A stretch of 64,000 nucleotides of DNA. It comes from Leucoraja ocellata. Lineage: Eukaryota. Location of the stretch: NCBI GenBank assembly GCA_036785375.1, contig JAWMAR010000070.1:4030001-4094000 (forward strand), in the 5' to 3' direction. Both the position numbers and the translations under genes were made by a program. This document shows, in pieces, positions 217-64,000 of the stretch (its first letter is position 1; the number at the start of each line of letters is the position of its first letter). The notes under the pieces are model-generated. The model made no database searches. It saw only the letters and a program-made list of their open reading frames with translations, and had not been told where the DNA came from.

Positions 217-534
217 TTTCAGGCGCACTGTGGGCTGAGAGCGAAGTGCGAGGGGTTGTGGGAAGAACGATCTCAATCGATTGTCACTATGCAGCAGTGT
301 ACCGCTCACACACAAAATACTGGTGCCGTGAGACAAGCCGCCAGTGTACACATGTAGTGGAAACAAATGGGAAACGTGGACAGAGCGGAAGAGTGTCAAT
401 CACAGATAACCCGGCACGAGGAATATTTACTGTGACCGTGGAGGATATTCACTCTGGAGATACAGGATGGTACAGATGTGGAATTACTACACCTGGCGAA
501 CCAACATTTAAAGTGCATCTCCAAGTATCTGAAG
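217..534 (+). CDS. Gene A V3 exon, CD300/pIgR-like V-set Ig domain
   Basis: IDCHY..KYWC-x6-C..DTGWYRCG motif; cttcag| acceptor, GAAG|gtaggt donor; 318 nt. Confidence 0.9.
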
Positions 535-3500
535 GTAGGTTTCTCAGTGAGTGACTTGATGTCTCCACTTTGGCAACGGGCAAAATATTTGTTAGGTGGG
601 AATCTGGTGCACAGTTCTGGTCGCCGCTTTATAAAACAAAAGATGTGAAAGGTTTGTAGAGTTTACAGAAACATGTTCACCCGGATATTTAGTAATATTT
701 TACAAATGTAACATTGAAACTGATCCTGTGGCCCACAGAGTCCTCACCAACTAGCGATCACCGGTCACACTAGTTCTATGTTATTCCACTTCCCCATTCG
801 CTCCCTGCACACAATTCTACAATACCGCCATTCACACACCTCATTAGTGCAACAGTATCACTATCAACTATTTTATGCAAGGAAATTAAAAAGTTGTCGA
901 TAGTGATTCTGTTGCACTAATGAAGTGTTTGAATGTTGATATTGTAGAATTGTGGCAGAGGTTTAGATTAAAACATATTAACGGCAGATGCTGGAATTGT
1001 AAAACAAAGAGAGATGGTGCTGCTGTGTCCTGGCACAGTGGCAGACATGGTAGTTCTGGCAGCTGGGAGGATGGAGAGGCACAGAGATAATTAAATCTGG
1101 TAAATTGTGTGGAGAATGAGCAGGGAAGACTTACAAGGATGTTGCGATGACTTGAGGACCTGGCATACGGGGAGAGTTTGAGCAGATTGGGGTTTTATTT
1201 CTTGGAGCGCAGCAGGATGTGGGTTGATCTGATGGCAGGTAAAACATTATGCGAGGAATAGATCGAGTAAATACACAGAGTCTTTTACTCAGAGTAGGGG
1301 AATCCAGAACCGGAGGACATATGTTTAATATGAGGGGGGAATGATTTAACAAGAACCTAGGGAGTAATGTTTTTACATAAAGGTTGGTAGGTACATGACA
1401 TGAACTGCCGACAGAAGTAGTTATGGCAGGTACTATCGTAACATTTAAGAAAATATTGGACAGTTATATGAATATGATATGTTTAGAGGATTAAGGGCCA
1501 AGAAAGGGCAGGTGGAACTAGTGCAGATTGGGCGTGTTGGTCAGCGCGGGCAAGTTAGACCGAAGGGCCTGTGTCTACGCTGCATGACTCTATGACTCTA
1601 TGTAGATGGATGGGTTAGATTCCAACTTGGCGTCTCTGGCTAAGATACAGAGATGGCGGATATTGGCGATTTTCAGATGTTTACTCAGTGTCTGACTGTT
1701 TGCTCCTTTCCCACAGAACCCGTGTCTGTTCCTGTGCTTGGATTCCTGTCACCAGCCAATGTTTCCTGTCTCGGGGGCTCAGTGACAGTGTCCTGTGAGT
1801 CGGTCCGGGGATCGCTTCCCATTAGCTACACCTGGTATGAAAAGACCCCATCTGGGGATTCAAAGATCTCAGACAACAGAGCCCTGGATCTACATTGTCA
1901 ATCCTTCAAACACCAGCACCATCAATATTCTTGCACAGCCTCAAATAATAATGGATCAAAATCCAGTGAAATGGTCAACGTGTCCATCTCCAGCAGTGAC
2001 GTGCCCTGCAGTTTCCTAGTGAAAATCAACGGCACTGGTAAGTAGTGGAGGGAATGAGGAGAAGAAGGGGAAGTGGGGGTGGGGTGGTTCATAAGATCAC
2101 GTGATAGAAGCAGAAATAGACCATTCAATCATGGCTGATCTATCTCCCCTCTTCATCCCATTCTCCTGCCTTCTCCACATAACCCCCGACACCCTGAAAT
2201 CCATGCACGTTATTTAAATGAAGGAATTATGGCCCATTTGTCAATACTTGGTTGCTGGGCTCCAGACATAGATTCCCCAGCGCTGGTGTAGATCAGCTTC
2301 CTGGCTAGAACTTCCTCTTATGTTTACACAGCTTTAAACTGGGTTTGCAGTGACATCAGCCCAAGCACTTTCACTTTCCCGCCATCATCGCCACATGACC
2401 GACACTCAAATATGGGAAGGGAACAGAAACTAGCAGTAAATGTGGCCACAGTTAACTCGTGGACGACGGTATCAGATTTGGTCCACTGTGTTAATGTTGA
2501 CCATTCAGTGCCATCGATACAATCCCATTTACCAGCACCTCGTCCATTGTGGCAATTCAGGCACCTCAGTTTTCTGCGTTTAAAAATATGTCTTGAGACC
2601 CTTGAAACATCCTGCTCATGAACTTAACCATATGTTCTCCACATTTACACATGTCTGTCGTGCAAGTTTTTCTAAAAATACTTAATCTTTGCAGCTCACA
2701 GTTTTGCACACCTGTAATAGGTCCCCCATTCCTCACCTGTTCTGCATGGACTTTTATAAAGCCCCTTCCAACCCCTCCCCATAACTGTAATGTTTCATCC
2801 CAAGCAATATTCCTCTCAAGTGAAATTGCACTCTTTAGATTACATTATGGATACAGGTTTGAAACAGGCTCATCGGCCCACTGAGTACACACAGTCCAGT
2901 ATTCACCAATAGACTAGTTCCATAGGGACAATTTACAAAGCCAATTAACCTACACACCTGCACGACTTGGAACGCTGGGGGAAACTGGAGCACTTGAAGA
3001 AACCCACGCGATCACAGGTAGGAGGGACACATTCCGTATAGACAGCATCCGTAGTCAGGATCAAACCTGGGTCTCTGGCCCTGGAAGGCAGCAACTCCAC
3101 CGCTGCGGCACCGTGCCGTCTACAGAGCCAACGTGGTTAAAAGCATTCCTGCTTATCATGACAACATCTCCCATTTGCTGCAAATCGGAAAATCATACCT
3201 CCTTGCTCAACTGCAAGTGAAAAGCAGTGAAACTGGATTTTATTTCCTTGTTCCAACAGGTCATGAATATTCTTGTGAAAATTCGATAACATCCAATTAC
3301 TCTGCAAGGTAAACCGCTCTGTTTCCAATGAAAATTGCATGTACTAATTGCTGGTGTTTTGATTGGGAATGCTTTAATTGGGGGAAAGTTGTTCCTTCCT
3401 TTCACTGGCATTAAATGCGTGAGAGTATTGATCTGAATGCACAGTGGCAAAGCCTATAGAAACACAGTCTCGCAACGCCACGACATAGGTTTAATGGGTG

Positions 3501-6500
3501 TTGTCTGTGTGTGATCTGCATGTTTTGCCTTTAATTGTGTTGGTTTCATTCAGTTTCCTCCCAGCTCCCAAAGATGTGCCAGTTGTAAATTGTCCCATGT
3601 GTACAGGAGAGTGGCTGAATCTGTGAAGAATGGGTGGGGTGGGGGAGGGGGCAGGGGGGTGGGTGGGGGTGGGGTGGTAGTTGATGAGAAAGTGGGGGAA
3701 ATAAAAATAGGATTGACACAGGAATCATGTGAATGCAGTTGACGGAAATGGCCTGTTTCTATACTGTGTTTCTCTATGGGTCTTTGATCCAATTAACCTA
3801 AATGTCACGAAGCACAATTGTTGTACAAGTTTCAAGCCTGACACCAAATATAACGTATCTATTAAATATTATTTAATACAATAAATATAACTTGCAAACC
3901 AGTTATTAGTTAACTCATCAGAAGGGGAATCGCACTGGTTTACATCTCATTGTGTTGTGTACATGCTTGGATTATAAGAACAAGTTCCTCCATTTGATGC
4001 TTTTCAGAGAGCGCTCCCTGCAGTATTCAACATGACTGCTCCATCACTCACCTCATCCCATGCTGTGAGATTAATATAGTTCCCAAACCTTAGTCTTCCA
4101 GTTTAGCTTTGCTGTGAATTCCTCTTGTGTGGTGCTGATAGGAAAATGCTTTATGAATGATGGGCTACGCCACACTCCCCATGATATCACTTGTGGCAAC
4201 ACCTTGTCATTGATGGGACCATACACCATAAAGTCGCTGGCGCAGAATGTCAGAAAATTGTCTTGAATCAGACCGAATACAGCAAAATGAGTTAACTGAC
4301 TCTCTCTTACTTGTTGATAATTGAAACCATTAAACATTCAATCATAATGTATTCATGAAAATGAGAACACTTTGTTATTTATCTTAATACAATTGAAATA
4401 TATCTGACTTTCTATCACACTCTTGTGTTATACTTGCGTTAGCAAATGTTCATGAAAGCCACGCCGTTATGAGCGAATCTTTAACCGACTTTTCGAACAC
4501 AATTCCTCCATCCACACACCTACCGCGTTGATCCACGAAGTATCCAGGGCGTGACATTAAGCATAATCATTTTAAAATTTATTTTATTAATTGGCCTCAT
4601 CTGTTTCCATTTTTGTTGCCCATCTCCCTTCCATTATTGGAATTGATCCGTTTTTATTATTCCTATCCCAATGGATTTTATTATAAACTTCCTTGCAGCT
4701 GCATTTTATTTCTTCCAGGGTATCACACTGTTCTTTGTATCCTTCCACATCCACAGTTTCCCTCTCCCGTGACTCTCAGTCTGAAGAAGGGTCTCGACCC
4801 GGAACTTCGCGCATTCCTTCTCTCCAGAGAGATGCTGCCACTCCCGCTATTTCTCCAACATTTTGTGTCCATCTGTTTTGTATTCACTGCCCCAACTCAT
4901 TGTATTCCACTGCCCCGACTCATGACTTATTTAGTCTGAAGAAGGGTTTCGGCCCGAAACGTTGCCTATTTCCTTCGCTTCATAGATGCTGCTGCACCCG
5001 CTGAGTTTCTCCAGCTTTTTTGTGTAATCTCGTGATTTATTTATATGTCTTCTCTGAATCCATTTAACCGCGTAGTCTCTCATTCCCAGTCTTGTATCCA
5101 TGCCCCAGCAATGACGTCAACAATTGGTGATCATATGTTGTCCCCCCCCGCCTCCCCACAGTGGAACACCCGTTCTTTTACAAAGATGGTCTCCACTGAC
5201 GCTGCCGCTTCGCCCCGCTCCACTTCACCAAGATTACGAAGCAATTAACAGGTAAATGCTGCAAAGATTAACCGTCTCGTTTCCTCCCATTGACTCTGTA
5301 TTTCTTGACCTTTGCCCAGTTACATCTCATGGAAAGTGGGGCGCTGGATGTTCTTTCTCCTGCTTGTGATCTGGAGTATCTCAACCGCGGTGTTCGCAAG
5401 AGGCTCAAAGGTAGGGTTTACTGTCATCATGTTCATAAATTATAGGAGCAGAATTAGGCCATAGAAACATAGAAAATAGGTGCAGGATTAGGCCATTCGG
5501 ACCTTCGAGTCTGCACCGCCATTCAATATGACCATGGCTGATCATCCAACTCAGTATCCTGTACCTGCCTTCTCTCCATACCCCCTGATCCCTTTAGCCA
5601 CAAGGGCCACATTTAACTCCCTCTTAAATATAGCCAATGAACTGGCCCCAACTACCTTCTGCGGCAGAGAATTCCAGAGATTCACCACTCTCTGTGTGAA
5701 AAAGGTTTTCCTCATCTCAGTCATACAAGATTTCCCCCTTACCTTTAAACTGTGACCCCTTGTTCTGGACTTCCCCAACATCGGGAACAATCTTCCTGCA
5801 TCTAGCCTATCCAACCCCTTAAGAATTTTGTAAGTTTCTATAAGATCCCCCCTCAAACTTCTAAATTCTAGCGAGTACAAACCGAGTATATCCAGTCTTT
5901 CTTCATATGAAAGCCCTGACATCCCAGGAATCAGTCTGGTGAACCTTCTCTGTACTCCCTCTATGGCAAGAATGTATTTCCTCAGATTAGGAAACCAAAA
6001 CTGTACGCAATACTCCAGGTGTGGTCTCACCAAGACCCTATACAACTGCAGTAGAACCTCCCTGCTCCTATACTCAAATCCTTTTGCTATGAATGCTAAC
6101 ATACCATTCGCCTTCTTCACTGCCTGCTGCGCCTGCCTGCTTACTTTTAATGACTGGTGTACCATGACACCCAGGTCTCGTTCCATCTCTCCCTTTCCTA
6201 ATCGGCCACCATTCAGATATACGTCTACTTTCCTGTTTTTGCCACCAAAGTGGATAACCTCACATTTATCCACATTATACTGCATCTGCCATGCATTTGC
6301 CCACTCACCCAGCCTATCCAAGTCACCTTGCAGCCTCCTAGCATCCTCCTCACAGCTAACACTGCTCCCCAGCTTCGTGTCATCCGCAAACTTGGAGATG
6401 TTGCATTCAATCCGCTCGTCCAAATCAATAATATATATCGTAAATAGCTGGGGTCTCATCACTGAGCCTTGCGGTACCCCACTAGTCACTGCCTGCCATT

Positions 6501-8458
6501 GTGAAAAGGACCCGTTTACTCCTACTCTTCCTGTCTGCCAGCCAGTTCTCTATCCACATCAACTAACACATCTAATCATAGACTAACTGGTCTGTAATAC
6601 CCCGTTTTCTCTCTCCCTCCCTTTTTAAAAAGTGGGGTTACATTAGCTACCCTCCAATCCTCAGGAACTACTCCAGAATCTAAAGGGTTTGAAAAATTAT
6701 CACTAATGCATCCACTATTTCTGGGGCTACATCCTTAAGTACTCTGAGGTGCAGCCTATCTGGCCCTGGGGATTTATCGGGCTTTAATCCATTCAATTTA
6801 CCTAACACCACTTCCCGGCTATCCTGGATTTCACTCAGTTCCTCCATCTCATTTGACCCTCGGTCCCCGGCTATTTCCGGCAAATTATTTATGTCTTCCT
6901 TAGTGAAGACAGAACCAAAGTAGTTATTCAATTGGTCTGCCATGTCCTTCTTCCCCATGATCAATTCACCTGTTTCTGACTGCAAGGGACCTACTTTTGA
7001 TTTAACGAATCTTTTTCTCTTCACATATCTATAAAAGCTTTTGCAGTCAGTTTTTATGTTCCCTGCCAGTTTTCTTTCATAATCTATTTTTCCCTTTCCT
7101 AATTAAGCCGTTTGTCCTCCTCTGCTGGTCTCTGGATTTATCCCAGTCCTCTGGTAGGCTGCATTTTCTGGCTAATTTGTACGCTTCATCTTTTGTTTTG
7201 ATACGATCCCTGATTTCCCTTGTTATCCACGGATGCACTACCTTCCCTGATTTATTTTTTTGCCAAACTGAGATGAACAATTGTTGTAGTTCATCCATGC
7301 AGTCTTTAAATGCCTTCCATTGCATATCCACCGTCAACCCATTAAGAATCAATTGCCAGTCTATCTTGGCCAATTCACGTCTCGTACCCTCAAAGTTACC
7401 TTTCTTTAAGTTCATGACCTTTGTTTCTGGATTAACAATGCCACTTTCCATCCTAATGAAGAACCCAACCATATTATGGTCACTCTTGCCCAAGGGGCCA
7501 CGCACAACAAGATTTCTAACTAACCCTTCCTCATTACTCAATACCCAGTCTAGAATAGCCTGCTCTCCCGTTGGTTCCTCTACATGTTGGTTTATAAAAC
7601 TATCCCGCATACATTCCAAGAAATCCTCTCCCTCCATTGAGCTCATCATATCTAATCGGCCCCCAATCACGGCTGATCTATCCTTCTCTCTCGATCCCAT
7701 TCACCTGCCTTCTCCCCATAACCATTGACATCCTTATTTATCAAGAAAATGAAAATCTCCGCATTAAAAATATCAATTAATTTGGACAGATACAAAAATG
7801 CTGGGGTAGCTCAGCGGGACAGGCTGCATCTCCGGTGTGAATTAACTTTGCCTCCACAGCCTCCTGTGGCAATGAAATCCATAGATTTACCAGAAGGGAT
7901 TCGCCCAAAGCAATCCCGTCTCTTCGCCGAATGTGTCCAAACGGTTTCCATTAATGCTTTCATATATCCTGTCCATCGATAGAAACAGAAATCGTGCACG
8001 TTTTCATATCCTGAAGTTAAACCAAATCTCTATGTAGATGAGTTTTTAAGAGGGAACTGCAGATGCTGGAGAATCGAAGGTTACACAGAAAAGCTGGAGA
8101 AACTCAGCGGGTGCAGCAGCATCTATGGAGCGAAGGAAATAGGCTTCGCTCCATAGATGCTGCTGCACCCGCTGAGTTTCTCCAGCTTTTCTGTGTAACC
8201 CTCTATGTAGATGATATCACGAGGTTTTGTCACGTTGTACGCGTGCAGGGTGGATTTCTGTGCCCGGTGTGGGTTCGTTGGCAGTGGATTAGCTAATTCG
8301 TGGATTAGCATCTTGCAGGCAGCAATGTGTTGGGAGTGGTCGGGTCAAATAAAGCGTTGTTCCCACTGTCAGAGAGTCTTCACATTTGACTTCACATTTG
8401 TCTTTTGCAGAGACGCGATGACACAGAACCTCGCCACTCGACCCACGAATTACAATGA
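217..8458 (+). CDS. Gene A (5'-incomplete): MDIR/CD300-like Ig receptor, activating type; exons 217-534, 1717-2037, 3260-3308, 5162-5251, 5320-5410, 8411-8458
   Basis: All junctions are AG/GT with consistent phases (1-1, 1-1, 1-2, 2-2, 2-0, 0-stop); the frame is open; paralogous to gene B exon by exon. Confidence 0.75.
1125..1600 (+). mobile_element. Degenerate CR1-type LINE 3' end (also ~17815-18290 and, interrupted by L1, in genes C and E)
   Basis: Decayed RT C-terminal sequence ending in (gactctat)2-like tail; boundaries approximate. Confidence 0.6.
1717..2037 (+). CDS. Gene A C2b exon, FCRL/PECAM-like C2 Ig domain
   Basis: VSCESVRGSLPISYTW...YSCTASN; ccacag| acceptor, ACTG|gtaagt donor; 321 nt. 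Confidence 0.88.
2930..3118 (-). mobile_element. tRNA-derived HE1/V-SINE-like element (other copies ~19610-19800 -, 36180-36375 -, 38390-38670 +, 43700-43950 +, 47265-47520 +, 61940-62135 -)
   Basis: Head ggcac..cggtagagttgctgcc..gacccgggttcgatcctgactacgg plus ggagtttgtacgttctc core recurs across the window. Confidence 0.6.
3260..3308 (+). CDS. Gene A stalk exon 1 (GHEYSCENSITSNYSA)
   Basis: ttccaacag| ... CAAG|gtaaac; phase 1-2; same length and open in all four copies. Confidence 0.7.
5162..5251 (+). CDS. Gene A stalk exon 2 (Pro-rich, GTPVLLQRWSPLTLPLRPAPLHQDYEAIN)
   Basis: ccccacag| ... ACAG|gtaaat; phase 2-2; open in this frame in 3 copies. Confidence 0.62.
5320..5410 (+). CDS. Gene A transmembrane exon with Arg (YISWKVGRWMFFLLLVIWSISTAVFARGSK)
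   Basis: tttgcccag| ... AAG|gtaggg; hydrophobic helix; phase 2-0. Confidence 0.75.
5460..7637 (-). mobile_element. CR1-clade LINE, 5'-truncated, with an internal deletion; RT ORF 5551-6489
   Basis: TSGVPQGSV..LF.IY..KFADDTK RT motifs; endonuclease end (LGKSDHNMV) in ORF 7077-7700; (catagaaa)2 3' tail. Confidence 0.92.
8042..8200. repeat. Short insertion containing a perfect 57-bp inverted repeat, flanked by a 14-bp direct repeat
   Basis: Arms 8079-8135 and 8144-8200, 8-nt loop; ctctatgtagatga at 8028-8041 and 8201-8214. Confidence 0.85.
8411..8458 (+). CDS. Gene A terminal exon, short tail RRDDTEPRHSTHELQ*
   Basis: ttttgcag| acceptor, phase 0, stop followed by two AATAAA (8656, 8673). Confidence 0.6.
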   Translation, partial: RRDDTEPRHSTHELQ

Positions 8459-8655
8459 AGACTGCTAGCTTGCACCTTCTTAATTTTTGCCACCTCTTCC
8501 AAGGTTTCTTTCGTCAGCTTCGAACTATTGTTTTAACCTTTGCGTGGTTTCTGCTGCTTTAGAGTTTTATACCATGTTAAACTATATTATATGCATACAA
8601 TTTCCTGGATTTTGTTTCACAGATTAATGAATAATAATGCAACAGAATGCTTCTT

Positions 8656-8678
8656 AATAAATGGTTGTTGTCAATAAA
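8656..8678 (+). terminator. Tandem polyadenylation signals of gene A
   Basis: AATAAA at 8656 and 8673, followed by a T/GT-rich tract; same arrangement in gene B. Confidence 0.55.
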
Positions 8679-8704
8679 CGGTTTGTCTAATTTGTTTTGA
8701 TTAG

Positions 8705-10874: not shown

Positions 10875-10898
10875 TGTGGTTCACGATCTGACTTCCTG
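10875..10898 (+). promoter_or_regulatory. Candidate RUNX (TGTGGTT) + ETS (ACTTCCTG) proximal promoter element of gene B
   Basis: Motifs lie ~100-130 nt upstream of the leader ATG; no TATA box seen; motif match only. Confidence 0.35.
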
Positions 10899-11001
10899 TT
10901 CCCTTCTTAGTCATTGCTGTTTGAGAGACGCGGTTGTATCTGAGAGCTCAGAGCTGAGCGACAGACAGACAAGTGCTGGCCTTGTCACTGTGAATAAAAC
11001 A

Positions 11002-11038
11002 ATGTGGATTCCCATTCTTCTCATCGCCTCGCTGCCGG
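11002..11038 (+). CDS. Gene B leader exon MWIPILLIASLP
   Basis: aaaacaATG, hydrophobic peptide, CCGG|gtgagt; three copies in window. Confidence 0.85.
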
Positions 11039-26788: not shown

Positions 26789-26825
26789 ATGTGGATTCCC
26801 ATTCTTATCATCGCCTCGCTGCCGG
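26789..26825 (+). CDS. Gene C leader exon MWIPILIIASLP
   Basis: Paralogue of 11002-11038. Confidence 0.85.
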
Positions 26826-48616: not shown

Positions 48617-48825
48617 TTTCAGGTGCACTGTGGGCTGAGAGCAAAGTAAGAGGGGTTGTGGGAAGAGCGATCAAAATCGATTGTCACTATGCAGCAGTGT
48701 ACCGCTCACACACAAAATACTGGTGCCCTGGGACAAGTCGCCAGTGTACACATGTAATAGAAACAAATGGGGAACATGGACTGAGCGGAAGAGTGTCAAT
48801 CACAGATAACCCGGCACGAGGAATA
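48617..48825 (+). pseudogene. Relic D: 3'-truncated V3 exon lacking the second canonical Cys and the splice donor
   Basis: VSGALW..DNPARGI, then a poly-C junction into sequence matching 9314 onward; no leader, C2 or TM exon seen nearby. Confidence 0.88.
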
Positions 48826-50698: not shown

Positions 50699-50735
50699 AT
50701 GTGGATTCCCATTCTTCTCATCGCCTCGCTACCCG
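50699..50735 (+). CDS. Gene E leader exon
   Basis: MWIPILLIASLP, G|gtgagt. Confidence 0.85.
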
Positions 50736-53700
50736 GTGAGTGAAAGCCAGTTCCTGATATTCCAATGATCAATGTTAGTTGGGGTCCCGTGCACCCTTTC
50801 CACAGCAGAGATGGTTAAGTGTGTGTAGACATGTAATGGGCGAGATGGAACTCAGTGCATTGAGGTGATGGATCTGAAATCACATTTGAATATCTAGACT
50901 TTGTTCGTAGTTTGACCACCGTTAACACGTGATCTAATTGCATCCTGATGATAGATTATAGGCATAAATAGCGAATGTATTTGGAGCAGATACTCCAAGA
51001 CACCTGGACCGAAGGATAGAGGTTCCAACATCACCAGGAAGTTAATTCTACACTAACAAAATGTGTTTACAACAGAGGTGGAAGTCACGATTGTGGTCTC
51101 ATTGTGTCAGTTCAAATATTCCCTGCATTTGTCCATCTCAACTCTGTCGCAAACTCAACAATTCCCCGGAGTCTGGGACTGAACCACTGTCCTCGCTCTA
51201 TCCACCCACTCCCAACTCTCTCTCCATCCGCTCTCGGATCCGCGGCCCAGTCGTGCTGAAATCCAAGTTCAGTTTATTGTCGCTTGTACCGAGGTACAGA
51301 GAAAAGCTTTTTGTTGCATGCTAACCTGCCAGATACATGATTACAATTGATCCTCTTACAGCGCATAGATACATGAATGGGAAATAGCGTTTAGTGTAAA
51401 GTAAGGCCAGCAAAGTCCGAGCAAGGGTAGTCCGAGGGTCACAAAGAGGTAGATAGTTGAGCACTGCTCTCTGGTTATGGGAGGATGATTCCGATGTCTG
51501 ATAACAGCTGGGAAGAAACATTCCCCGAATCTGGCGGTGTGCGCTGTCACGCTAGTAACGCTCTCCGTTAATGGACCCGAATTATTGTAACTCGTCCGAC
51601 CTCTGTCCTCAGTCAGGGCGTTGGAAAGCATTGGCGGCGGTGAATGTCTAAACACGGGTCGGCTTTCGGCGTCCGGGTGGGACTCGAGAAGGACCAGGCG
51701 CTGTCCACGGGCACCTGGGGGATTTCCGGGACATCTGGGCACCGCCTGCGGTTGAATACACCCTTGACAAGTATTGTAACATAGTTGTATAGTAGTTTAT
51801 TTAGTATATTTGTTTGTATTGTATTATGGTGTTGGGTTCTTGTTTTATTGTAGTGTAAATATTATTTTTAATAATTGAATAAATTATTCAGATGCCTGAT
51901 AACTGCTGTGAAGAAATTGTCACCGCCAATGAAATAGCAAAGTGGGGTCTTTCGTGGGGTGAGAGGCCGGGCACCGCCTGGGATTGTTGAAAGGCAGCTC
52001 CTGCAACACTGCCGCGCTCCCTCAGTACCGCACTGCGATCCCAGCCCAGTTTCTGCTCAGGGATCTGGAGTGGGAAGTGAACCCAAATTGTACTGAACCG
52101 GGGACAGAACACTGACACAACTGGTACAATAACAGCACTGCCTGCACTTAAGACGGGAGACATTGGCCGTGAAGCAATATGACACATCATTGAACGNNNN
52201 NNNNNNNNNNNNNNNNNNNNNNNNNNNNNNNNNNNNNNNNNNNNNNNNNNNNNNNNNNNNNNNNNNNNNNNNNNNNNNNNNNNNNNNNNNNNNNNNNNNN
52301 NNNNNNNNNNNNNNNNNNNNNNNNNNNNNNNNNNNNNNNCTCTGGACACCCAAGGACACCTTACAGGACATAAAATCACAATACAATTATCAATATTAAA
52401 ATTAAGTTGCCAAAAAACAAAAAACAAAAAAATACACAAAATATTTTAAGTCATTAAAATCAGGGTGAACATGGTGGAAGTTATGTCGGGTATGCTAATC
52501 TAAACAGGTGTGTTTTGAGTTGTGATTTGAATTGATCGATAGTGTCCAGGTGACGGAAGGGAGGTGGGAGAGTGTTCCAGAGACGTGGGGCAGAGCAGCT
52601 GAAGGCTCTGGCACCCATGGTGCTGAGTCTAAATGTGGGGACAGTTAAAATTGCAGCTGAGGAGGAACGAAGTGACCGGGAAGGAGTGTATGGTGGCAGC
52701 AGGTCAGAGAGGTATTGGGGAGCAAGGTGCGGTAGGGCTTTGAAGGTCAGCAGTAAAATCTTGTAGTTAATCCGGTGGTGCACAGGGAGCCAGTGGAGCT
52801 GAGTGAGGATGGGTGTGATGTGGTCCAATTATCTGGTGCGGGTGATGATCCGGGCTGCAGAGTTCTGAATGCATTGGAGGCGATGAAGTAGTTTATATGA
52901 AGAAGTAATCTTACAAAATTTCCATTAAACAGTTCATTTTCTCTCCATCTGAAAGTTTCTCCCCTCAGTTTCAGGTGCAGTGTGGGCAAAGTGGGATGTA
53001 AGAGGAGTTGTGGGAACAGCGACCACAATCGATTGTTACTATGCAGCAGAGTACCGCTCACACACAAAATACTGGTGCCGTGGGAGGAATAACCAATGTA
53101 CAGTTTTGGTGGAAACAAATGAGCAACACGGACGGAGTGGAAGAGTGTCAATCACAGATAACCCGGCACGAGGAATATTTACTGTGACTGTGGACGATCT
53201 TCAGGATGGAGATACAGGATGGTACAGATGTGGAATTACAACATCTGCCGACCATCCAATATTTAACGTTCATCTCGGAGTATCTGACGGTACGTTTCGC
53301 AGCGATTGATTGACGTCTCCAGCAGAAAGACAATACAGGATTACAATCGATTATCCTACAGTGCATAGATACATGAAAAATAAATCACGTTTAGTGTAAG
53401 GTAAAGGCAGCAAAGTACGATCAAGGGTGGTCCGAGGGTCGTCAAAGAGGTAGATGGGAGTTCAGGACAGATCTCTGGGCGTGGTAGGATGATTCAGATG
53501 CCTGATAACTGCTGTGAAGAAATTGTCACCGCCAATGAAATAGCAAAGTGGGGTCTTTCGTGGGGTGAGAGGCCGGGCACCGCCTGGGATTGTTGAAAGG
53601 CAGCTCCTGCAACACTGCCGCGCTCCCTCAGTACCGCACTGCGATCCCAGCCCAGTTTCTGCTCAGGGATCTGGAGTGGGAAGTGAACCCTAATTGTACT

Positions 53701-56700
53701 GACCCGGGGACAGAACACTGACACAACTGCTACAATAACAGCACTGCCTGCACTTCAGACCGGAGACATTGGCCGTGAAGCAATATGACACATCATGGAA
53801 CTATTTAAGTTTTCTTTCATGGAATCTTGAAAATGTATCTATTTCCACTAAACTGTTCATTTGCTCTCCATCTGAAAGTTTCTCCCCTTCAGTTTCAGGT
53901 GCAGTGTGGGGAGAGATGTATGTAAGAGGAGTTGTGGGAAGTGCGTTTACAATCGATTGTCACTATGCAGCAGAGTATCACTCACACACAAAATACTGGT
54001 GCCGTGTGCAGTATCGCCAATGTGCAGATATGGTGGAAACAATTGGGCTACGCGGAAGGAGTGGAAGAGTGTCAATCACAGATAACCGGGCACGAGGAAT
54101 ATTTACTGTGACTGTGGAGGATCTTCTCTCTGGCGATACAGGCTGGTACAGATGTGGAATTGCAACATCTAACGGCCTCCCAATGTTTACCGTAGAACTC
54201 CTTGTATCTGACGGTACGTTTCGCAGCGATTGACTTGTCGTCTCCACTGACTCGCCACTTCCCGCCATTCTGAAAAGGACCCGTTCACTCCTACTCTTTG
54301 CTTCCTGTCTGCCAACCAATTTCCTATCCACGTCAACACCCTTCCATGCGCTTTCAATTTAGTCACCAGTCTCCCGTGCGGAACCTTAACAAAGGATTTC
54401 TTGAAGTCTAGATACACTACATTCACTGGCTCACCTTCGTCCATTTTACTTGCCACATCCTCAAAAAATTCCCGAAGATTAGTCAGGCATGATTTTCCTT
54501 TCATAAATCCATGCTGACTTGGACTAATTATTTTACTGCTATCCAAATGCCCCATTATTACCTCTTTAATAATTGACTCCGGCATCTTTCCCGCACCGAA
54601 GTCAGGCTAACTGGTCTGTAATTTCCCGTTTTCTCTCGCTCCTTTCTTGAAAAGTGGGATTTAACTTCACTTTTCACTTCAAGTGGAATACTCAGCGCAT
54701 TTCCCTTCCTCTGAACTGTATGAAATGTCACCCGTCAGAAATTTGCATTCAGACTCAAACTAATAATCCCAGTGAGGAACAAGTGTTGTTTGATCTGTGG
54801 TTGATCTGAAAGTTTCTCCCCTCAGTTTCAGATGCAGTGTGGGCAGAGAGGGATGTAAGTGGAGTTGTGGGAAGAGCGATCACAATCGATTGTCACTATG
54901 CAGCAGAGTACCGCTCACACACAAAATACTGGTGCCGTGGGAGGAATCGCCCATGTAGAGTTTCAGTGGAAACAAATGGGCAAAACGGACGGAGTGGAAG
55001 AGTGTCAATCACAGATATACCGGCACTAAGAATATTTGCTGTGACTGTGGAGGATCTTCACTCTGGAGATACAGGATGGTACAGCTGTGGAATTACTACA
55101 CCTGGCGACCGTCCAATATTTAACGTACATCTCCAAGTATCTGACGGTACGTTTCGCAGCGATTGACTTGACGTCTCCACTGAAATGCCTTATCTATGTT
55201 CTCTCCGGGAAGGGTCAGGGCAGCACCGATATCCCGAGGCTCCGCAGCAGTGCAGAGACCTGCGGGGAACGGGCGGGGGTCGGGAAACCCCACTCATGTT
55301 GCTCTCACCCAGTGCGGGCTCTGTCCCACTGAGCGGCCACCCACTTCAAGTGGGAAGCTCAGCACATTTCCCTGCCTCTGAACTGTATGAAATGTCACCC
55401 TGTCAGAGGTTTGCATTCCGACTCAAACTAATAACCCGACAGACTCCGCAACTCCCTGGTCAACTCGTCCTTTCCCACCCCGTCCCCAGATACCTTCCCC
55501 TACAACTGCAGGAGATGCAACACCAGTCCCTATATATCCCGCTTCTACTCCGTCCAAGGCTCCAACAGTATTTCCGGGTGAGTCGGAGGTTCACTTACAT
55601 CTCTTCTAACCTCCTCTACTATATCCGCTGTTCCAGGTGTGAACAAGCGGATACAGTAGATGGGAGACCCAACGCAGGCTCGGCGATCGTTTCGCTGAAC
55701 AATTCCGCACAGTGTTCCTCGGCCTACGCTACATCCCGATTGCAAAACACCTTTATTCCCCCTCCCATTCCCAAACTGATCTTTCTGTCCCGGATCTCCT
55801 CCCCTGCAGAGTGAGGCCAAAAGCAAATTGGAGGAACAGTGCCTCATATTTCGCTTGGGCAGCTTACAACCCAGCGGTTTGAATATTGACTTCTCTAACT
55901 TCAAGTAACCCTTGCTTTACTCCTGTCTCCATCCCGCCCCATCCGAAGCCTCCAATTATTTTCACTGCCCTCCAGATTATATTTTACTGATTCTATGCCT
56001 TCCCTTCAGTTGACAATGATCCATTCTACATTTTTGAAAAACATTTTCACCTTTGATCACTTGTTTTCACACCGTACCCTTCCATTTCTCTTCTGTCTCC
56101 CTTTCTCATGATTCTCAGGCTGAAGAAGGGTCACGATTCGAAACGTCACCCATTCCTTCTCTCGAAAGATGCTGCCTAATCCGCCGAGTTACTCCTGCAT
56201 TTTGTGTCTATCTTAAAGGGACGTAACATCCCAACATATGTTCTGAGGGACAGCGTTTTCCACACATTGGGTGATATTTATATGGAAGCTGCTGCCAGGG
56301 TAAGGTGTTAAGGCAGTTAGAATAGCAGCATTTAAAATATTTTTTTTGATATTTGCGTAGATTGGGATCATTGCCAGTGATGAGGGAGAAACGTGGACAT
56401 ATGGAAATGGCCCAGAAAGACATGTTGGTCGGCATGAATGAGCTGTTGTGATGGGCATCTTTCGGTTCTCTATAACTCTAACCTTCTTCAGTTTCTGGGC
56501 TTCGCACACTCACAGAGATGTAGATGAGCCGATGAGATGTCAACCGGACGGTTCGGGCTGAGATAAAAGGCTGCTGAGATTTAGCATGTGTTTGGTTTTG
56601 AACTGTTCATACAGGTGACTGAATGTTTGCTCCATTCCCACAGAACCCATGTCTGCTCCTGTGCTCAGATATCTGTCACCAGCAAATGCCTCACGTCTCG

Positions 56701-59700
56701 GAGGCTCAGTGTCGGTGTCGTGTGAGTCTGTCCGTGGATCCCTTCCCATCAATTACACATGGTTTGAGAAGAACGAGCATTGGGTTTCAACGATCGTGTC
56801 TGGCAATCAACTGGATCTGAGTTGTGAAATCCTCGAAGGTCAACACCGTCAATATTACTGCAGAGCCTCAAATAATCGTGGGATAAAATCCAGTGAAATA
56901 CTCAACGTGAAAGTCTTTAAAGGAGCAGGAACGTGCAGTTATGTGACAGAAATCAACAATGCAGGTGAGTGTTCTTCTCGTGTCCCTGAACCTGCTGCTA
57001 TTCGCCTTGAGGGGATGTTCATGGATTTCTTGTTATTTGCAGACGGCATCATTGCAGCCACCGGGAGCTCATGGTGTAAAATGCGAGAGTTTGTTTGGGG
57101 GACTGGTAAATGATTGCCTGTTGCTTTCACCTGGGAGGTGTTGAGAAATGTCAGCAAATGAGAGAAATACCTGCGGGTTCAGTGCATTCCATCAAAATTA
57201 TTTTCTGGCTGCCGCACTTTGAGACAGAGAAAGAAACCAAATTCATTCTGTTTGGATCCATCATCAGTTATAACCAATGATGTACAATTTCATGATCATG
57301 TTCATGATTTTAACTCTGTTAATTTGTGTAAAACTCCAGTAATCTCAGAAAATTAAATTGGAATCTACTTGGCCGTCACTCCATCAAGTATAACCCTTAC
57401 TTTTGTCAAAGATAATTTTGAAAAGAACTTCCCTGTAGGTGTGGAGACGCTCATATTGGAAGTCCAGAAGAGAGTGTGAATGGTTTACATCAGCGAGACC
57501 AATTTTATACAAGGCCAGTTCTTCTTAAACTATTACAGTGTAATTCGCCCTTGAGTCTTTATTACAAGATATTCACCCTCCACTAAATGTTCTTATGTTC
57601 TTTTGGTTATTATCATCGCATTTTCCCTTGTGCATAATTTTATAGATAATTGATTTTGTCACATGAGCAAAAAACATAAATTAACTAATTTACGCCAAAA
57701 TAATTTTATTCGCCCTTGGGTGAACCATTCATCAGTTTAAGAAGCACTGGTCTATGCTACAATTTCGCCGAACACTTGTGTTTGGTTTGTCATGACCCAG
57801 AATCGCGCATGATAGACACCCCATCCTCAACCTCCCCCGCTGATGCAGAGCAGCAGCAGTTTGCACCATCTGCACGATGCACTGCAGCAACTGACCAAGA
57901 CTCCCTAGACAGCGCCTTCCAATTGCAAGAGGCTCCGTGTTCAATACATCATTCTTCACCATTCACACCCACATTGGCTGGGAAGCGCTTTGGAACGACC
58001 TGTGCAGGTGGTGAGGGACGGTGTATAGTATCTGTCTCTCATCGCAATCTAGGTGGAATTCAACAGAGTTAAGAAATTGAGTGGGCAGACTCCCCTGTAC
58101 ATTATGCTCTAATGTATATGTTTGTGAAAGGCTAATTTTGCTCTTCAATTTATGAAAGATTTTTGCTTCAGTTGCAGGTGCACTGTGGGCAGAGAGCGAA
58201 GTGCGAGGGGTTGTGGGAAGAGCGATCACAATCGATTGTCACTATGCAGCAGTGTACCGCCCACACACAAAATACTGGTGCCGTGAGACAAGTCGCCAGT
58301 GTACACATGTAGTGGAAACAAATGGGAAACATGGACAGAACGGAACAGTGTCAATCACAGATAACCCGGAACGAGGAATATTTACTGTGACTGTGGAGGA
58401 TCTTCACTCTGCTGATACAGGATGGTACAGATGTGGAATTACTGCACCTGGCGAACCAACATTTAAAGTATATCTCCAAGTATCTGAAGGTAGGTTTCTC
58501 AGTGAGTGACTTGATGTCCCCACTTTGGCAACGGGAAAACATTTGTTAGGTGGGAGTCTGGTTCACAGGTCTGGTCGCCGCTTTATAAAACAAAAGATGT
58601 GAACGGTTTGTAGAGTTTACAGAAAATGTTCACCCGGATATTTAGTAATAGTTTATAAATGTAACATGGAAACGGATCCTTCGGCCCACCGAGTTCTCAC
58701 CACCTAGCGATCACCGGTCACACTAGTTCTATGTTATCCACTTTCCCATTCGCTCCCTACACACAATTCTACAATACCGCCATTCACACACCTCATTAGT
58801 GCAACAGTATCACCATCAACAATGTTATGCAAGGAAATAAAAAAGTTGTTGATAGTGATACTGTTGCACTAATGAGGTGTTTGAATGTTCAGATTAAAGT
58901 AAAATAAACTGCAGATGCTGGAATTGTAAAACAAAGAGAGATGGTGCTGCTGTGTACTGGTACAGTGGCAGACATGGTAGTTCTGGCGGCTGGGATGGTG
59001 GAGAGACACAGAGATGTCTAAATCTGGTAAATTGATTGTGAGGAGAAGGAGCAGAGAAGACTTACAAGCATGTTGCGATGACTTGAGGGCCTGGTATACA
59101 GGGAGGGGTTGCGCAGATTAGGGCTTTATTCCTTGGAGCGCAGGAGGATGAGGGGTGATTTTATTGCAGGTAAAAAAATCACGCGAGTTTAAAATAAAAT
59201 TGGACCCCAACACTGAATTGATTATTTTTGGAACAATGGAAGCCGGCTCTAAGCTGATTTCATTCCAAAATTCTCTCCTTAACCATGGCTTGATAACAGC
59301 AAAAAAACGTATACTCAAATTCTTGAACAACGAACCCACCCCCACGCTTAAAATGTGGATTTCAAGCATGTCTGAAATGTTACACCTCGAAGATATGAGA
59401 TTCGTCCTTGCAGGTAAAGCAGACCAATTCCTAAAGATTTGGTCTCCTTTTATCGACATTCCAAGTACATGGTGCAACATAACCCTGGAAATTAACTGTT
59501 TCAGAACTGGGTGAGGGGTGTGGAAAGACATGAAGCAGGTATATCCCTTCTCCCTTTTATTCTTTTTCTGTTTTGTTTTCTTATTATTGTATTTTATTCT
59601 CTATTTTTTATTTCTATTTACTAATTTATGTATTTATTTTTCGGGGGGGGGTTCACGTTTTTTTTGCGGCTTTATATCTTTACGGGTTCTTTCTATCTAT

Positions 59701-62700
59701 TCTTTCACGAACTATCAATATCACTACTTTACTTAACTTTCTCTCTCCTTCTCTTTTTTGCTTCTGTTACTTTTCTATTAATAAATTAAAAACAAGAAGT
59801 TTTACACTAAATGTAATATGTAAAACACGGTTTATACTACTGTACATTGATTCAAATAAAAATATTTATTAAATTTTTTTTAAAAATCACAAAAATCACG
59901 CGAGGAATAGATCGAGTAAATACACAGTCTTTTGCCCAGAGTAGGGGAATAGGGAACTGGAGGACATAGTTTTCATATCAGGGGGGAATGATTTAACAGG
60001 AACCTGGCGAGTAACGTGTTTACACAAAGGTTGGTAGGTCCATGAAACGAACTGCCGACGGAAGTAGTTATGGCTGGTACTAACGTACCGTTTCAGACAA
60101 TATTGGACAGTTACATGAATAGGATATGTTTAGAGGGTTAAGGGCCAAGAAAGGACAGGTGGAACTAGTGTAGATTGGGCGTGTTGGTCAGCGCGGGCAA
60201 GTTAGGTCGAAGTTTCTACTGTATGACTCTACGAATCTATGCAGATGGGATGGGTCCGACAGTTATATAAACAATGCTCCCTTTTTCCTGCTGGCAATTC
60301 CTGAAATGTAAAAGAGAATCGAAGATTGTCTGATGATATGTCCGCTCTGTGGTCAGTATTCATCACCATGTTATAGGAAAGATGCTATCAAGTAAGATTG
60401 GGTGCAGAAAAGATTTACAATGATGCTGCCATGACTTGAGTGCCTGAACTCCAGGGAGGGATTGAGCGGACTAGGACTTTATTTCTGGGAGAGCAGGAGG
60501 ATGAGGGATGATCTTACGGCAGCTACAAAATCACGCGACGAATAGATCGAGTAAATGCACAGTCTCTTCCGTTTGGAAGCTTATGGGCTAAGCAAGGGCA
60601 GGTGGAACTAGTGCGGATGGACATGTTGGCCTGCTTCTACACTGTATGCCTCTATGACTCCGTGCAGATGGATGGGTCCGATTCCAACCTGGCGGCTCTG
60701 GCGAAGATCCAGAAATGGTGGATATTGGCGAGTGTTTGATTTTCAGATGTTCACTCAGTATCTGACTGTTTGCTCCTTTCCCACAGAACCCGTGTCTGTT
60801 CCTGTGCTCGGGTGTCTGTCACCAGCCAATGTCTATTGTCTCGGGGGCTCAGTGACAGTGTCCTGTGAGTCGGTCCGGGGATCCCTTCCCATTAGCTATA
60901 CCTGGTATGAAAATACCCCATCTGGGGATTCAAAGATCTCAGACAACAATATCCTGGATCTACATTGCCAATCCTTCAAACACCAGCACCATCAATATTA
61001 TTGCACAGCCTCAAATCAACATGGATCAAAATCCAGTGAAATGGTCAACGTGTCCATCTCCAGCAATGACGCGTCCTGTAGTTTCCTGGTGAAAATCAAC
61101 GGCACTGGTAAGTAGTGGAGGGAATGGGGAGAAGAAGGGGAAGTGGGGGTGGGGTGGTTCATAAAATCACATGTGATAGAAGCAGAAATAGACCATTCAA
61201 TCATGGCTGATCTATCTTCCCCTCTTCACCCCATAATTCATGATGGAATTATGGCCCATTTGTCAATACTTGGTTGCTGGGCTCCATAAATAGATTTCCC
61301 AGTGCTGGTGTAGACCAGCTTCCCGGCTAGAATTGCCTCTTATGTTTACACAGCTTTAAACTAGGTTTGTAGTGACATCAGTCCAAGCATTTTCACTTTT
61401 CATCATCTGCACATGACCGACACTCAAATATGTGAAGGGATCAGAAATTATCAGTAAATGTGGCCACAGTTAACTCCTAGACGACGGTATCGCATTTGGG
61501 TCACTGTGTTAATGTTGTCCATTCAGTACTATCAATACTCATCCCACTTACCAGCACCTCGTCCATTGAGGCAATTCAGGTACCTCTATCTTCTCGGTTT
61601 AAAAATATTTATTTATACCCTTCAAACATCCTGCTCCTTAACTTACCCATATGTTCTCCACTTTTACACATATCTGTCATGTAAAATGTTCCAAAATTAC
61701 CCTGTCTATGCTGCTCATAGTTTTGTACACCTGTAATAGGTCCCTCCTTCCTCACCTGTTCTGCATGGAATTTTATAAAACCCCTATCCAACCCCTCCCC
61801 ATCACTGTAATGTTTCATCCCAAGCAATACTCCTCTCAAATGAAATTGGACCCTTTTGATTAATTTGTGGATACATCGTGGAAGCAGGTTCTTCGTCCCA
61901 CTGAGTACACAACGTCCAGTAATCACCAGTATACTAGTTCCATGGGGACAATTTACAGAAGCCAATTAACCAACACACTTGCAAGAGTTCAGACTGTGGG
62001 GAAACTGGAGCACTTGTAGAAACCCCACGCGGTCACAGGGAGGAGTTACAAATTCCGTGCAGACAGCATCCGTGGTCAGGATCGAACCCGTGCCTCTGGC
62101 TGTAAGGCAGCAACGCTACCGCTGCGCCATCGTGCCATCTACACCTGGAGCCAGAGTTGTTACCAGCACTCCTGCTTGTCATGATAACATCTCCCATTTG
62201 CTGCAAATCACACAGAAGAAGCATTGCCCCGTCTGCTAAGCCTATCAACTCCTTGCATCGGAAAATCATAGCTACTTGTTAAACTGCAAGTGAAAAGCAG
62301 TGAAACTGACTTTTATTTCCTTGTTCCAACAGGTCTTGAATGTTATTGTGAAAATTCGATACCATCCAATTACTCTGCAAGGTAAAATGCTCTGTTTCCA
62401 ATGAAAGTTACAATGTACTAATTGCTGGTGTTTTGATTGGGGAATGCTTTAATTGGGAGAAACTGGCATTAAATGCGTGAGAGTGTTGAGCCACAGTCTC
62501 ACAACGCCACGCCATTGGTTCATTAGGAGCTGTCTGTGCGTGGTCTGCATGTTTTGCCTTTAATTGTGTTGGTTTCATTCAAGTGCTCCAGTTTCCTCCC
62601 AGCTCCCAAAGATGAACCAGTTGTAAATTGCCCCATGTGTACAGGAGAGTGGCTGAATCTGTGAAGAATGGGTGGGGTGGGGGTGGGGGTGATAGCTGAT

Positions 62701-64000
62701 GAGCAAGTGGGGGAAATAAAAATAGGATTGACACAGAAATCATGTGAATGCAGTTGACGGAAACGGCCTGTTTCTATACTGTGTTTCTCTATGGGTCTTT
62801 GATCCAATGAACCTAAATGTCATGAAGCATAACCAATTGTTGTACAAGTTTCAAGCCTGACACCAAATATAAACGTATCTATTAAATATTATTTAATACA
62901 ATAAATATACCTTACAAACCAGTTATTAGTTAACTCATCAGAGGGGGAATCGCACTGGTTTACATCTCATTGTGTTGTGTACATGCTTGGATGATAAGAA
63001 CAAGTTCCTCCATTTGATGCTTTTCAGAGAGCGCTCCCTGTAGTATTCAACATGACTGCTCCATCACTCACCTCATCCGAATACAGCAAAATGAGTTATC
63101 TGACTCTCTCTTACTCGTTGATACTTGAAACTTGAATTAAATATTCAATCATAATATAGTCATGAAAGTGGGAACATTTTGTTGTTTATCTTATCACAAT
63201 TGAAATAGATCTGACTTTCTATCACACTCTTGTGTTATACTTGCGTTAGCAAATGTTCATGAAAGCCACGCCGTTATGAGCGAACCTTAAACCGATTTTT
63301 CGAGCACAATTCCTCCATCCACACACCTACCGCGTTGATCCACGAAGTATCCAGGGTGTGAGATTAAGTATAATCATTTTTTAATTAATTTTATTAATTG
63401 GCCTCATCTGTTTCCATTTTTATTGCCCATCTCCCTTCCATTATTGGAATTGATCCGTTTTTATTATTCCTGTCTATCCAAATGGATTTTATTATAATCT
63501 TCCTTGCAGCTGCATTTTCTTTCTTCCAGGGTATCACACTGTTCTTTGTATCCTTCCACATCCACAGTTCCCTCTCCCGTGACTCTTGGTCTGAAGAAGG
63601 GTCTCGACCCGGAACTTCACGCATTCCTTCTCTCCAGAGAGATGCTGCCTCTCCCGCTGTGTTTCTCCAACATTTTGTGTCCATCTGTTTTGTATTCACT
63701 GTCCCAACTCATGACTTATTTATCTGTATTCTCTAAATCCATTTAACCGTGTAGTCTCTCATTCCCAGTCTTGTAGCCATGCCCCAGCAATGAGGTCAAC
63801 AATTGGTGATCATATGTTGTCCCCCCCCGCCTCCCCCCAGTCCAACACCCGTTCTTTTACAAAGATGGTCTCCACTGACGCTGCCGCTTCGCCGCGCTCC
63901 GCGTCACCAAGATTATGAAGCAAATAACAGGTAAATGCTCCAAAGATTAACCGTCTCGTTTCCTCCCATTGACTCCGTATTTCTTGCCCTTTGCCCAGTT
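50699..64000 (+). CDS. Gene E (3'-incomplete): L-V-V-V-C2-V-C2-stalk-stalk-[TM], predicted activating type
   Basis: Exons 50699-50735, 52969-53289, 53893-54213, 54826-55146, 56644-56964, 58172-58489, 60787-61107, 62333-62381, 63841-63930; A/B-type TM acceptor ttgcccag| ends at 63998. Confidence 0.75.
52197..52339. other. Assembly gap (143 N)
   Basis: N run. Confidence 1.
52340..52880 (-). mobile_element. L2-clade LINE 3' fragment
   Basis: DHITPILTQLHWLPV..APQYLSDLL..GARAFSCSAPRLWNTLP..FKSQLKTHLF. Confidence 0.85.
52969..53289 (+). CDS. Gene E V0 exon (unique in window)
   Basis: VSGAVWAKWDVRG..YWCRGRNNQC..DTGWYRCG; 321 nt, AG/GT bounded. Confidence 0.88.
53893..54213 (+). CDS. Gene E V1 exon
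   Basis: Paralogue of 12627-12947. Confidence 0.9.
54826..55146 (+). CDS. Gene E V2 exon
   Basis: Paralogue of 13562-13882. Confidence 0.9.
56644..56964 (+). CDS. Gene E C2a exon
   Basis: Paralogue of 15379-15699. Confidence 0.88.
58172..58489 (+). CDS. Gene E V3 exon
   Basis: VAGALW..YWCRETSRQC..DTGWYRCG; 318 nt. Confidence 0.9.
59188..59890 (+). mobile_element. L1-clade 3' end with perfect 14-bp TSD aaaaatcacgcgag (59174-59187 / 59891-59904)
   Basis: Same insertion as 33122-34052 but without the solo LTR. Confidence 0.82.
60787..61107 (+). CDS. Gene E C2b exon
   Basis: Paralogue of 1717-2037; 321 nt. Confidence 0.88.
62333..62381 (+). CDS. Gene E stalk exon 1 (GLECYCENSIPSNYSA)
   Basis: 49 nt, phase 1-2. 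Confidence 0.7.
63841..63930 (+). CDS. Gene E stalk exon 2
   Basis: PTPVLLQRWSPLTLPLRRAPRHQDYEANN; phase 2-2. Confidence 0.62.

Follow-up and report, generated by a model that had tools for sequence, protein, structure and literature searches.

An MDIR gene cluster in Leucoraja ocellata joins near-identical V and C2 exons to activating-type or inhibitory-type modules and is probably represented by two haplotypes of different gene content

The stretch of DNA analysed here, hereafter the window, covers 64,000 nucleotides (nt) of scaffold C70 (C70:4,030,001-4,094,000) in the 3.44-Gb assembly of Leucoraja ocellata, and carries genes of the MDIR family of modular immunoglobulin (Ig)-domain receptors. 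Self-comparison resolves the window into tandem units of 13-20 kb which are 94-97% alike; paralogues in the region as a whole are 94-98% alike. Genes B, C and E, the 3′ half of gene A and a half-exon relic (D) all lie on the plus strand, and their exons have AG/GT ends and open frames and fall into leader, variable-type (V), C2-type, link, transmembrane (TM) and tail types (Table 1). In a Pfam search with 20 open reading frame (ORF) entries, 19 Ig ORFs matched V-set or Ig/C2 and the remaining entry a reverse transcriptase of a long interspersed nuclear element (LINE). The ORF of the exon that encodes immunoreceptor tyrosine-based inhibitory motifs (ITIMs) has no Pfam family.

The genes end in one of two signalling modules. 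Genes A and B encode the arginine-containing membrane segment YISW(K/E)VGRWMFFLLLV... (Arg-TM), followed by the tyrosine-free tail RRDDTEPRHSTHELQ. Gene C encodes a neutral TM and the motifs ITYAVV, VVYADV and SIYASV. An initial annotation of the window had proposed leader, V and C2 exon types shared between two such modules, and exon mapping of B, C and E bears this out. It had also thought gene E probably activating; the Arg-TM and tail of E can be read just past the window end (63999-64089 and 64735-64782 in window numbering), and E is therefore of the activating type. The ectodomains are V-C2-V-C2 in C, V-V-C2-V-C2 in B and V-V-V-C2-V-C2 in E. A different domain count in each gene, as first described, does not hold: the leader and a V-V-V-C2 portion of gene A lie upstream of the window (C70:4022314-4029009), so that A has six Ig exons like E, and six is the commonest count in the cluster (13 of 23 intact models). 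All Ig exons are bounded by phase-1 introns and can therefore be swapped as units without breaking the frame. A second, C-C′ cysteine pair (YWC-x5-9-C) is present in all complete V exons of the window.

Exon boundaries were fixed from named MDIR proteins. These place the V exon acceptor at an AG 6 nt upstream of that in the first model (…SLPVSGALW…), splice the link exon straight to the TM exon, and start the TM exon of gene C at its tabulated position, so that an acceptor at 38989 was dropped. A 66-nt "stalk" exon was modelled at first; it is absent from MDIR5 and from the RefSeq prediction P0001, it contains a stop codon in five paralogues, and the stretch is, by these comparisons, probably not a constitutive exon. 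Two runs of N, at 27881-28035 and 52197-52339, interrupt the first introns of C and E; neither is long enough to conceal a V exon. Inserts resembling the LINE fragments of gene A occur at about 22240-23950 and 39753-40391.

Table 1. Features mapped in the window (positions in window numbering)
Feature	Position	Strand	Description
Gene A (G12)	217..8458	+	3′ half of a 6-Ig activating-type MDIR
Gene A exons	V 217-534; C2 1717-2037; link 3260-3308; Arg-TM 5320-5410; Tyr-free tail 8411-8458	+	
Open AG..GT stretch of 66 nt	5186..5251 (A); 21875-21940; 63865-63930	+	68 nt before the Arg-TM exon
LINE-type reverse-transcriptase fragments	5551..7700	-	In last intron of gene A; RVT_1, E 1.2e-10
Promoter motifs upstream of gene B leader	10875..10898	+	TGTGGT at -127; dimorphic ACTTCCTG / ACGTCCTG site at -111
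Gene B (G13)	11002..24062	+	5-Ig activating-type MDIR, about 602-608 aa
Gene B 5′ exons	leader 11002-11038; V 12627-12947; V 13562-13882; C2 15379-15699	+	
Gene B 3′ exons	V 16908-17225; C2 18408-18728; link 19942-19990; Arg-TM 22009-22099; tail 24015-24062	+	
Gene C (G14)	26789..41842	+	4-Ig inhibitory-type MDIR
Gene C Ig part	leader 26789-26825; V 29134-29454; C2 30562-30882; V 32102-32419; C2 34974-35294	+	
Gene C 3′ part	link 36559-36607; neutral TM 39043-39131; cytoplasmic exon 41107-41153; three-ITIM exon 41576-41842	+	
Relic D	48617..48825	+	First two-thirds of a membrane-proximal-type V exon, joined via a C run to intergenic DNA
Gene E (G16)	50699..64000, continuing past window	+	6-Ig activating-type MDIR
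Gene E 5′ exons	leader 50699-50735; V 52969-53289; V 53893-54213; V 54826-55146; C2 56644-56964	+	
Gene E 3′ exons	V 58172-58489; C2 60787-61107; link 62333-62381; Arg-TM from 63999	+	

When one window V exon was used as the query, 95 proteins were recovered from 122 candidates, and skates, rays and sharks supplied nearly all of them. The exon is 91% identical to MDIR3 (ABC86797.1), 86% to MDIR5 (ABC86800.1) and 65% to MDIR2 (ABC86796.1) of the clearnose skate, whose MDIRs were reportedly described from cDNA. Comparison of B and C with these proteins revealed the same domain orders and the same TM and tail modules. MDIR3 combines the V-V-C2-V-C2 layout of gene B with the three ITIM motifs of gene C, and MDIR5 combines the V-C2-V-C2 layout of gene C with the W-x3-RW membrane segment and tail of A, B and E. 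Identity to the named MDIRs is 74-80% over the shared length; gene C and MDIR3 agree at 454 of 584 aligned residues, and gene A is 90% identical to MDIR5 in the TM and 78% in the tail. W460, R464 and W465 do not vary among the 24 Arg-TM relatives compared, all of which had been chosen because they carry that TM. At the edge of the cluster, G43/G08 match MDIR2 best (75% over 224 aa). V identity, domain order, TM and tails raise the paired activating/inhibitory cluster from the "MDIR-like" of the initial annotation to a member of the family. Judged by these sequence matches, the window genes are real and belong to the known MDIR family, and their on/off design is already known.

The earlier suggestion that forms with four to six domains may be undescribed was largely wrong, since MDIR5 has four Ig domains, MDIR3 has five, and RefSeq predictions with six or more exist (P0011, P0003 and P0001). 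Other skates and rays, too, have named or annotated proteins with both tail types and with four to six or more domains. Its companion, that the genomic organisation may be undescribed, is unrefuted: no account of MDIR genomic organisation or haplotypes was found in a literature search whose coverage stopped short of the original 2006 text. The original MDIR study (Cannon et al. 2006, PMID 16738934) is discussed in the available portion of PMC3031540. Within that same coverage, what is likely added to the known family is a map of the cluster, together with the on/off hybrids and the haplotypes that probably differ in gene content.

A V profile applied to C70:3.65-5.01 Mb located 150 V exons over the range 3.86-4.94 Mb, a cluster of about 1.1 Mb; 124 of these exons lie before 4.70 Mb. 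In two genome-wide V searches that scored 150 of 223 and 150 of 198 candidates, every scored match lay on C70 or on scaffold C1141. The 53 exon groups in 3.85-4.71 Mb include 23 intact models with at least four Ig domains. Fourteen are activating (one with 4 Ig domains, two with 5, ten with 6 and one with 8) and nine inhibitory (three with 4, one with 5, three with 6, one with 8 and one with 10). Both tail types occur at 4, 5, 6 and 8 Ig domains; domain count is therefore independent of tail type. Not counted among the 23 are G26, which has two 1-nt indels next to a gap; G43/G08, whose TM exon was not found; G07/G19, a single gene divided between two contig ends; G03 and G23, which lack Ig exons; the broken G02, G09, G22, G28, G29, G33, G39 and G46; single-V or V-C2 distal genes; and solitary V relics. 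The inhibitory genes with ten Ig domains (C70:4602151-4618786) and eight (4578249-4595966) look intact and have repeated V-C2 units. At C70:4.78-4.92 Mb there are about 21 divergent V exons, arranged in pairs to quartets, which lack the C-C′ cysteines (LWSKG/LWRKG replacing YWC), and ITIM-like exons lie at 4.748, 4.923 and 4.942 Mb.

Activating and inhibitory genes have exchanged ectodomain sequence. The two signalling types interleave in trees of V and C2 exons, and in each of the six exon classes, exons of different types are on average as far apart as exons of the same type (permutation p 0.22-0.80). In the C2-V-C2 block of 18 genes, neighbour-site incompatibility was 0.306 versus 0.402 when shuffled (p 0.0005), by which clonal descent is rejected. 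For instance, the activating G11 and the inhibitory G31 are 99.4-100% identical in 13 consecutive 800-nt intervals (about 10 kb, V-C2-V), a block that includes a long intron insert matched by no other gene; divergence starts at the last C2, and the shared domains differ by 1, 1, 2 and 5 residues. Another example is the second V of gene C, which differs by 2 nt from that of the activating G17. The phase-1 exons would allow unequal crossing-over and conversion between the 13-20-kb genes to add or drop V or V-C2 units in frame, and the same exchange could re-wire an ectodomain to the opposite tail without a frame break; recombination is seen in the exons, and crossing-over is the proposed route.

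The cluster is present in two copies. C70:3.813-3.89 Mb recurs at 4.148-4.235 Mb with 97-98% identity, and a G-alpha-i exon in the flank has two copies at 100%. G07 and G19 differ by 2 mismatches and 110 gap openings in 8,160 nt at an error-rich contig end. As one gene at two contig ends, they indicate that the contig holding the window is placed inverted (gap at C70:3943911). Read with this inversion, copy 1 comprises 3.81-4.15 Mb and copy 2 comprises 4.15-4.53 Mb, and each spans the stretch between the same flank and the same MDIR2-like gene and stops at a scaffold gap. Intact genes number eight activating and two inhibitory in copy 1 (plus G07/G19), and six and four in copy 2. Elsewhere in the assembly, Tweety and G-alpha loci are also doubled (C48 vs C2644; C86:0.70 vs 1.70 Mb) at 98.3-99.7% identity, which suggests, as far as such comparisons go, haplotigs retained across the assembly. 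In public run X2, from another individual, four unbroken contigs, of a kind that may drop rare variants, cross 12 sites that differ between the copies. One of them is mixed, matching copy 2 at two sites and copy 1 at five, and in another tract five of seven copy-2 letters are present at 10.9 of 34.2 depth. If these were fixed differences between paralogues, every contig would break at them; the copy differences therefore behave as alleles. C1141:210001-363823 is a second version of the distal cluster (C70:4.63-4.72 Mb) and holds nine V genes (six followed by an Arg-TM and three by an ITIM exon) against three on C70. The two cluster copies are thus very probably two haplotypes with different gene content.

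It is unlikely that the copies are instead a fixed segmental duplication of about 350 kb on one chromosome, with all of the roughly 20 intact core genes coexisting per haploid genome. The copies do lie in tandem on one scaffold, their flanks diverge by 14 mismatches/kb compared with 7.5 and 1.6/kb at other doubled loci, and one doubled bin stands at 1.4-2.1x single-copy depth in X2; however, there is no junction sequence where both copies stop at scaffold gaps, the X2 contigs show differences that are not fixed, the assembly doubles other loci as well, and the distal cluster has a second version on a separate small scaffold.

Several results weigh against the reading as haplotypes of a recombining, paired cluster. 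The flank divergence is about 2x and 9x that of the other doubled loci, and a young true duplication would give likewise. Depth in X2 is mixed, with doubled bins at 35.1 and 45.8 (the latter with a repeat sliver) versus 21-33 in single-copy bins; this depth is not a copy number and was not relied on. Copy 2 is made of three contigs joined across gaps, which leaves the order and number of its genes uncertain. Ig exons of inhibitory genes have their nearest neighbour in an activating gene in 23 of 28 comparable cases, the five exceptions all being membrane-proximal C2 exons, where about 21 of 28 would be expected by chance from 14 activating and five other inhibitory genes; the count therefore indicates free mixing and not specific pairing. 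Pairwise pN/pS (nonsynonymous over synonymous), calculated after the distal genes and the divergent V exons of G42, G27 and G25 had been dropped, was 0.57-1.32 with every 95% interval including 1. The description of the locus as rapidly evolving is thus upheld for recombination and gene-content change and not for positive selection. No Leucoraja ocellata transcript joins Ig to TM/tail exons, and the exon junctions derive from the MDIR proteins of the clearnose skate and from models in RefSeq. The sole spliced contig (record 17, depth 2.9) comes from X4, a possibly-RNA run of unlabelled tissue; in it the end of a V exon abuts precisely on the start of a C2 exon. Among the listed pieces of X4 and X5 contigs compared with window positions 10801-30800, none falls on TM/tail exons, which counts neither way. 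With these points taken into account, there is still good reason to hold that the window lies in an MDIR cluster in which near-identical V and C2 exons are joined to Arg-TM or three-ITIM modules, and that the assembly likely holds two haplotypes differing in gene content.

Relic D has no leader, C2 or TM. Its half V exon occurs three times with the same truncation point (in the window and at C70:4310388 and 4407091), each just 3′ of an inhibitory gene; two of the three sit in the other cluster copy. Full solitary V exons lie 3′ of three further inhibitory genes.

The promoter layout found upstream of gene B, TGTGGT followed by a dimorphic site, is repeated upstream of C and E. TGTGGT is present in 36 of 42 leaders (C70:3.85-4.71 Mb) against 5% of random 200-mers, and ACTTCC(T/G) in 19 of 42 against 3%. 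The dimorphic site, 16 nt beyond TGTGGT, reads ACTTCCTG in 19 of 42 leaders, including A, B and E, and ACGTCCTG in most others, including C; both forms are found in activating and in inhibitory genes. We take TGTGGT to be a RUNX-type motif and ACTTCCTG to be an ETS-type core. Such a site could serve gene-by-gene tuning of expression.

The neutral TM with three ITIM-type motifs is predicted to be inhibitory; in leukocytes, where these receptors would presumably act, this form would recruit SHP-1/2-type phosphatases through its ITIMs. The Arg-TM with a tyrosine-free tail is predicted to be activating, likely through FcR-gamma; the Arg near the outer membrane face would pair with the Asp of an FcR-gamma dimer. 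Both the Arg/FcR-gamma and the ITIM/SHP logic are established for LILR, PIR, GPVI, FcaRI and CD300. This genome has an FcR-gamma TM exon with Asp (scaffold C201), 92% identical to annotated skate FCER1G, and RefSeq entries from a skate and several sharks already bear the name FcR-gamma. In the little skate, the annotated FCER1G lies on a contig whose length (33,952,483) equals that of the contig with the MDIR-like genes of that species. The predicted complex of the MDIR5 TM with an FcR-gamma TM dimer scored 0.10, which speaks neither for nor against the pairing. A second exon (C175), which we take to be CD3-zeta-like, has a frame break in this assembly.

On its left the cluster is flanked by CCDC48/EFCC1 and G-alpha-i, and on its right by an AHCYL gene. 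Screens of flank ORFs covered 150 of 882 and 124 of 765. The human CD300 neighbourhood at 17q25 contains TTYH2, RAB37 and OTOP2/3; Tweety and Otopetrin matches lie on other scaffolds (C20, C48, C2644 and C4) and none on C70, in an assembly that is fragmented. Probes for IL10 and STRIP had no genome match and were uninformative. In mammals, MAPKAPK2 and PFKFB2 bracket FCMR, PIGR and FCAMR. MAPKAPK2 is found on C70 as well, at 8.23 Mb, as is a PFKFB2-type gene at 8.33 Mb (106 bits vs 99, 87 and 85 for other PFKFB entries). The interval is 3.3 Mb from the MDIR cluster, and the V profile found no pIgR-type V exon between the two genes (C70:8.23-8.43 Mb; best E 0.41). On the minus strand at C70:8411160-8420000, a reading frame that stays open for 2,947 aa or more has no Pfam match. 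FCMR, PIGR and FCAMR are linked at 1q32.2 according to the available portion of PMC6509151. As far as the accessible text of PMC4016189 goes, no PIGR, FCRL or FcR-gamma was found in sharks; the position of MAPKAPK2 and PFKFB2 on this scaffold and the FcR-gamma exon bear on the view in that text that PIGR, FCRL and FcR-gamma begin with bony fish.

The most likely function, by analogy, is CD300-like paired sensing of a putative self ligand. Inhibitory receptors would read the self ligand, and look-alike activating receptors would counter microbes that exploit the inhibitory ones. G11 and G31 form a ready matched pair for comparing ligand and signalling, with 1-5 amino-acid differences per shared domain. 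The V domain matches structures in PDB of CD300a/c/f, pIgR, NKp44, FcmuR and TREM2, and the C2 domains match FCRL5 best. AlphaFold rendered MDIR5 as four Ig domains plus a TM helix, but at a mean pLDDT (predicted local distance difference test score) of 59.5, and this model was left out of the fold searches. These matches, the MAPKAPK2- and PFKFB2-type genes on the scaffold with no pIgR-type V exon between them, and the absence of PIGR and FCRL from sharks in the accessible text of PMC4016189 would also suit cartilaginous-fish immunoglobulin receptors (pIgR/Fc-alpha-mu-R/FCRL-like) that bind IgM or other antibody, an identity which we nevertheless judge improbable. The best single-domain scores are for CD300a/c (72.8 bits, with another CD300-family hit at 66 bits) and not for pIgR D1 (48-60 bits); the complementarity-determining region 1 (CDR1)-like loop is shorter than that of pIgR D1 and has no VNRH stretch; the cluster stands 3.3 Mb from the PIGR slot; and dozens of recombining, haplotype-variable on/off copies would fit a variable ligand better than a constant Fc. 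It is very unlikely that collapsed or mis-joined repeats created much of the copy number, the hybrids and the genes with eight to ten domains as assembly artefacts. Despite the 200-N gaps, the inverted contig, the error-rich end at G07 = G19 and paralogues 94-98% alike, frames are open and splice sites intact in exons that differ by about 4-5% from gene to gene, the window genes lie within one 204-kb contig (3944111-4148178) with no assembly-type 200-N gap inside, and both tails and four to six or more domains recur in proteins of other skates and rays.

A wider proposal is more tentative. The cluster may be a KIR-like complex in which the chromosomes of one animal differ in MDIR number, domain count (4-10) and on/off ratio, with the G11/G31 ectodomain "on" on one and "off" on the other; combining pIgR/CD300-type V with FCRL-type C2 on a chromosome with an empty PIGR slot, it may be the representative, in cartilaginous fish, of the gene pool behind the chromosome-1 Fc/poly-Ig receptors. 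If the two copies are haplotypes, KIR-like gene-content polymorphism and tail-swapping would occur also in the oldest living lineage with adaptive immunity.

Among known systems, primate KIR/LILR and rodent PIR work alike in having gene-content haplotypes (likely here) and hybrid genes in which an ectodomain has come to be wired to the tail of opposite sign, and LILRA and PIR-A share the Arg-TM with the activating MDIRs. As families they are unrelated to MDIR, their receptors having only C2 domains. PIGR/FCAMR/FCMR and FCRL5 resemble the window genes in that the V domains are of pIgR type and the C2 domains of FCRL5 type, on a scaffold with MAPKAPK2- and PFKFB2-type genes. PIGR, FCAMR and FCMR have an all-V ectodomain with a long Ig-binding CDR1 loop in domain 1, whereas the window genes are mixed V/C2 chains with a short CDR1-like loop, in many paired copies outside MAPKAPK2-PFKFB2. 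CD300a/c/f share the V domain with an extra C-C′ cysteine pair and the paired on/off logic; however, CD300 has one V and a stalk, with Lys or Glu in the TM of activating members, and the window receptors have four to six Ig domains that include FCRL-type C2. The clearnose skate MDIRs agree in leader, V and C2 types, in the link exon, in the Arg-TM with a short tail (MDIR5) and in the neutral TM with three ITIMs (MDIR3). Beyond these named proteins, the locus described here has forms with 6, 8 and 10 domains, both tails on the same layouts, a genomic arrangement, and two likely haplotypes.

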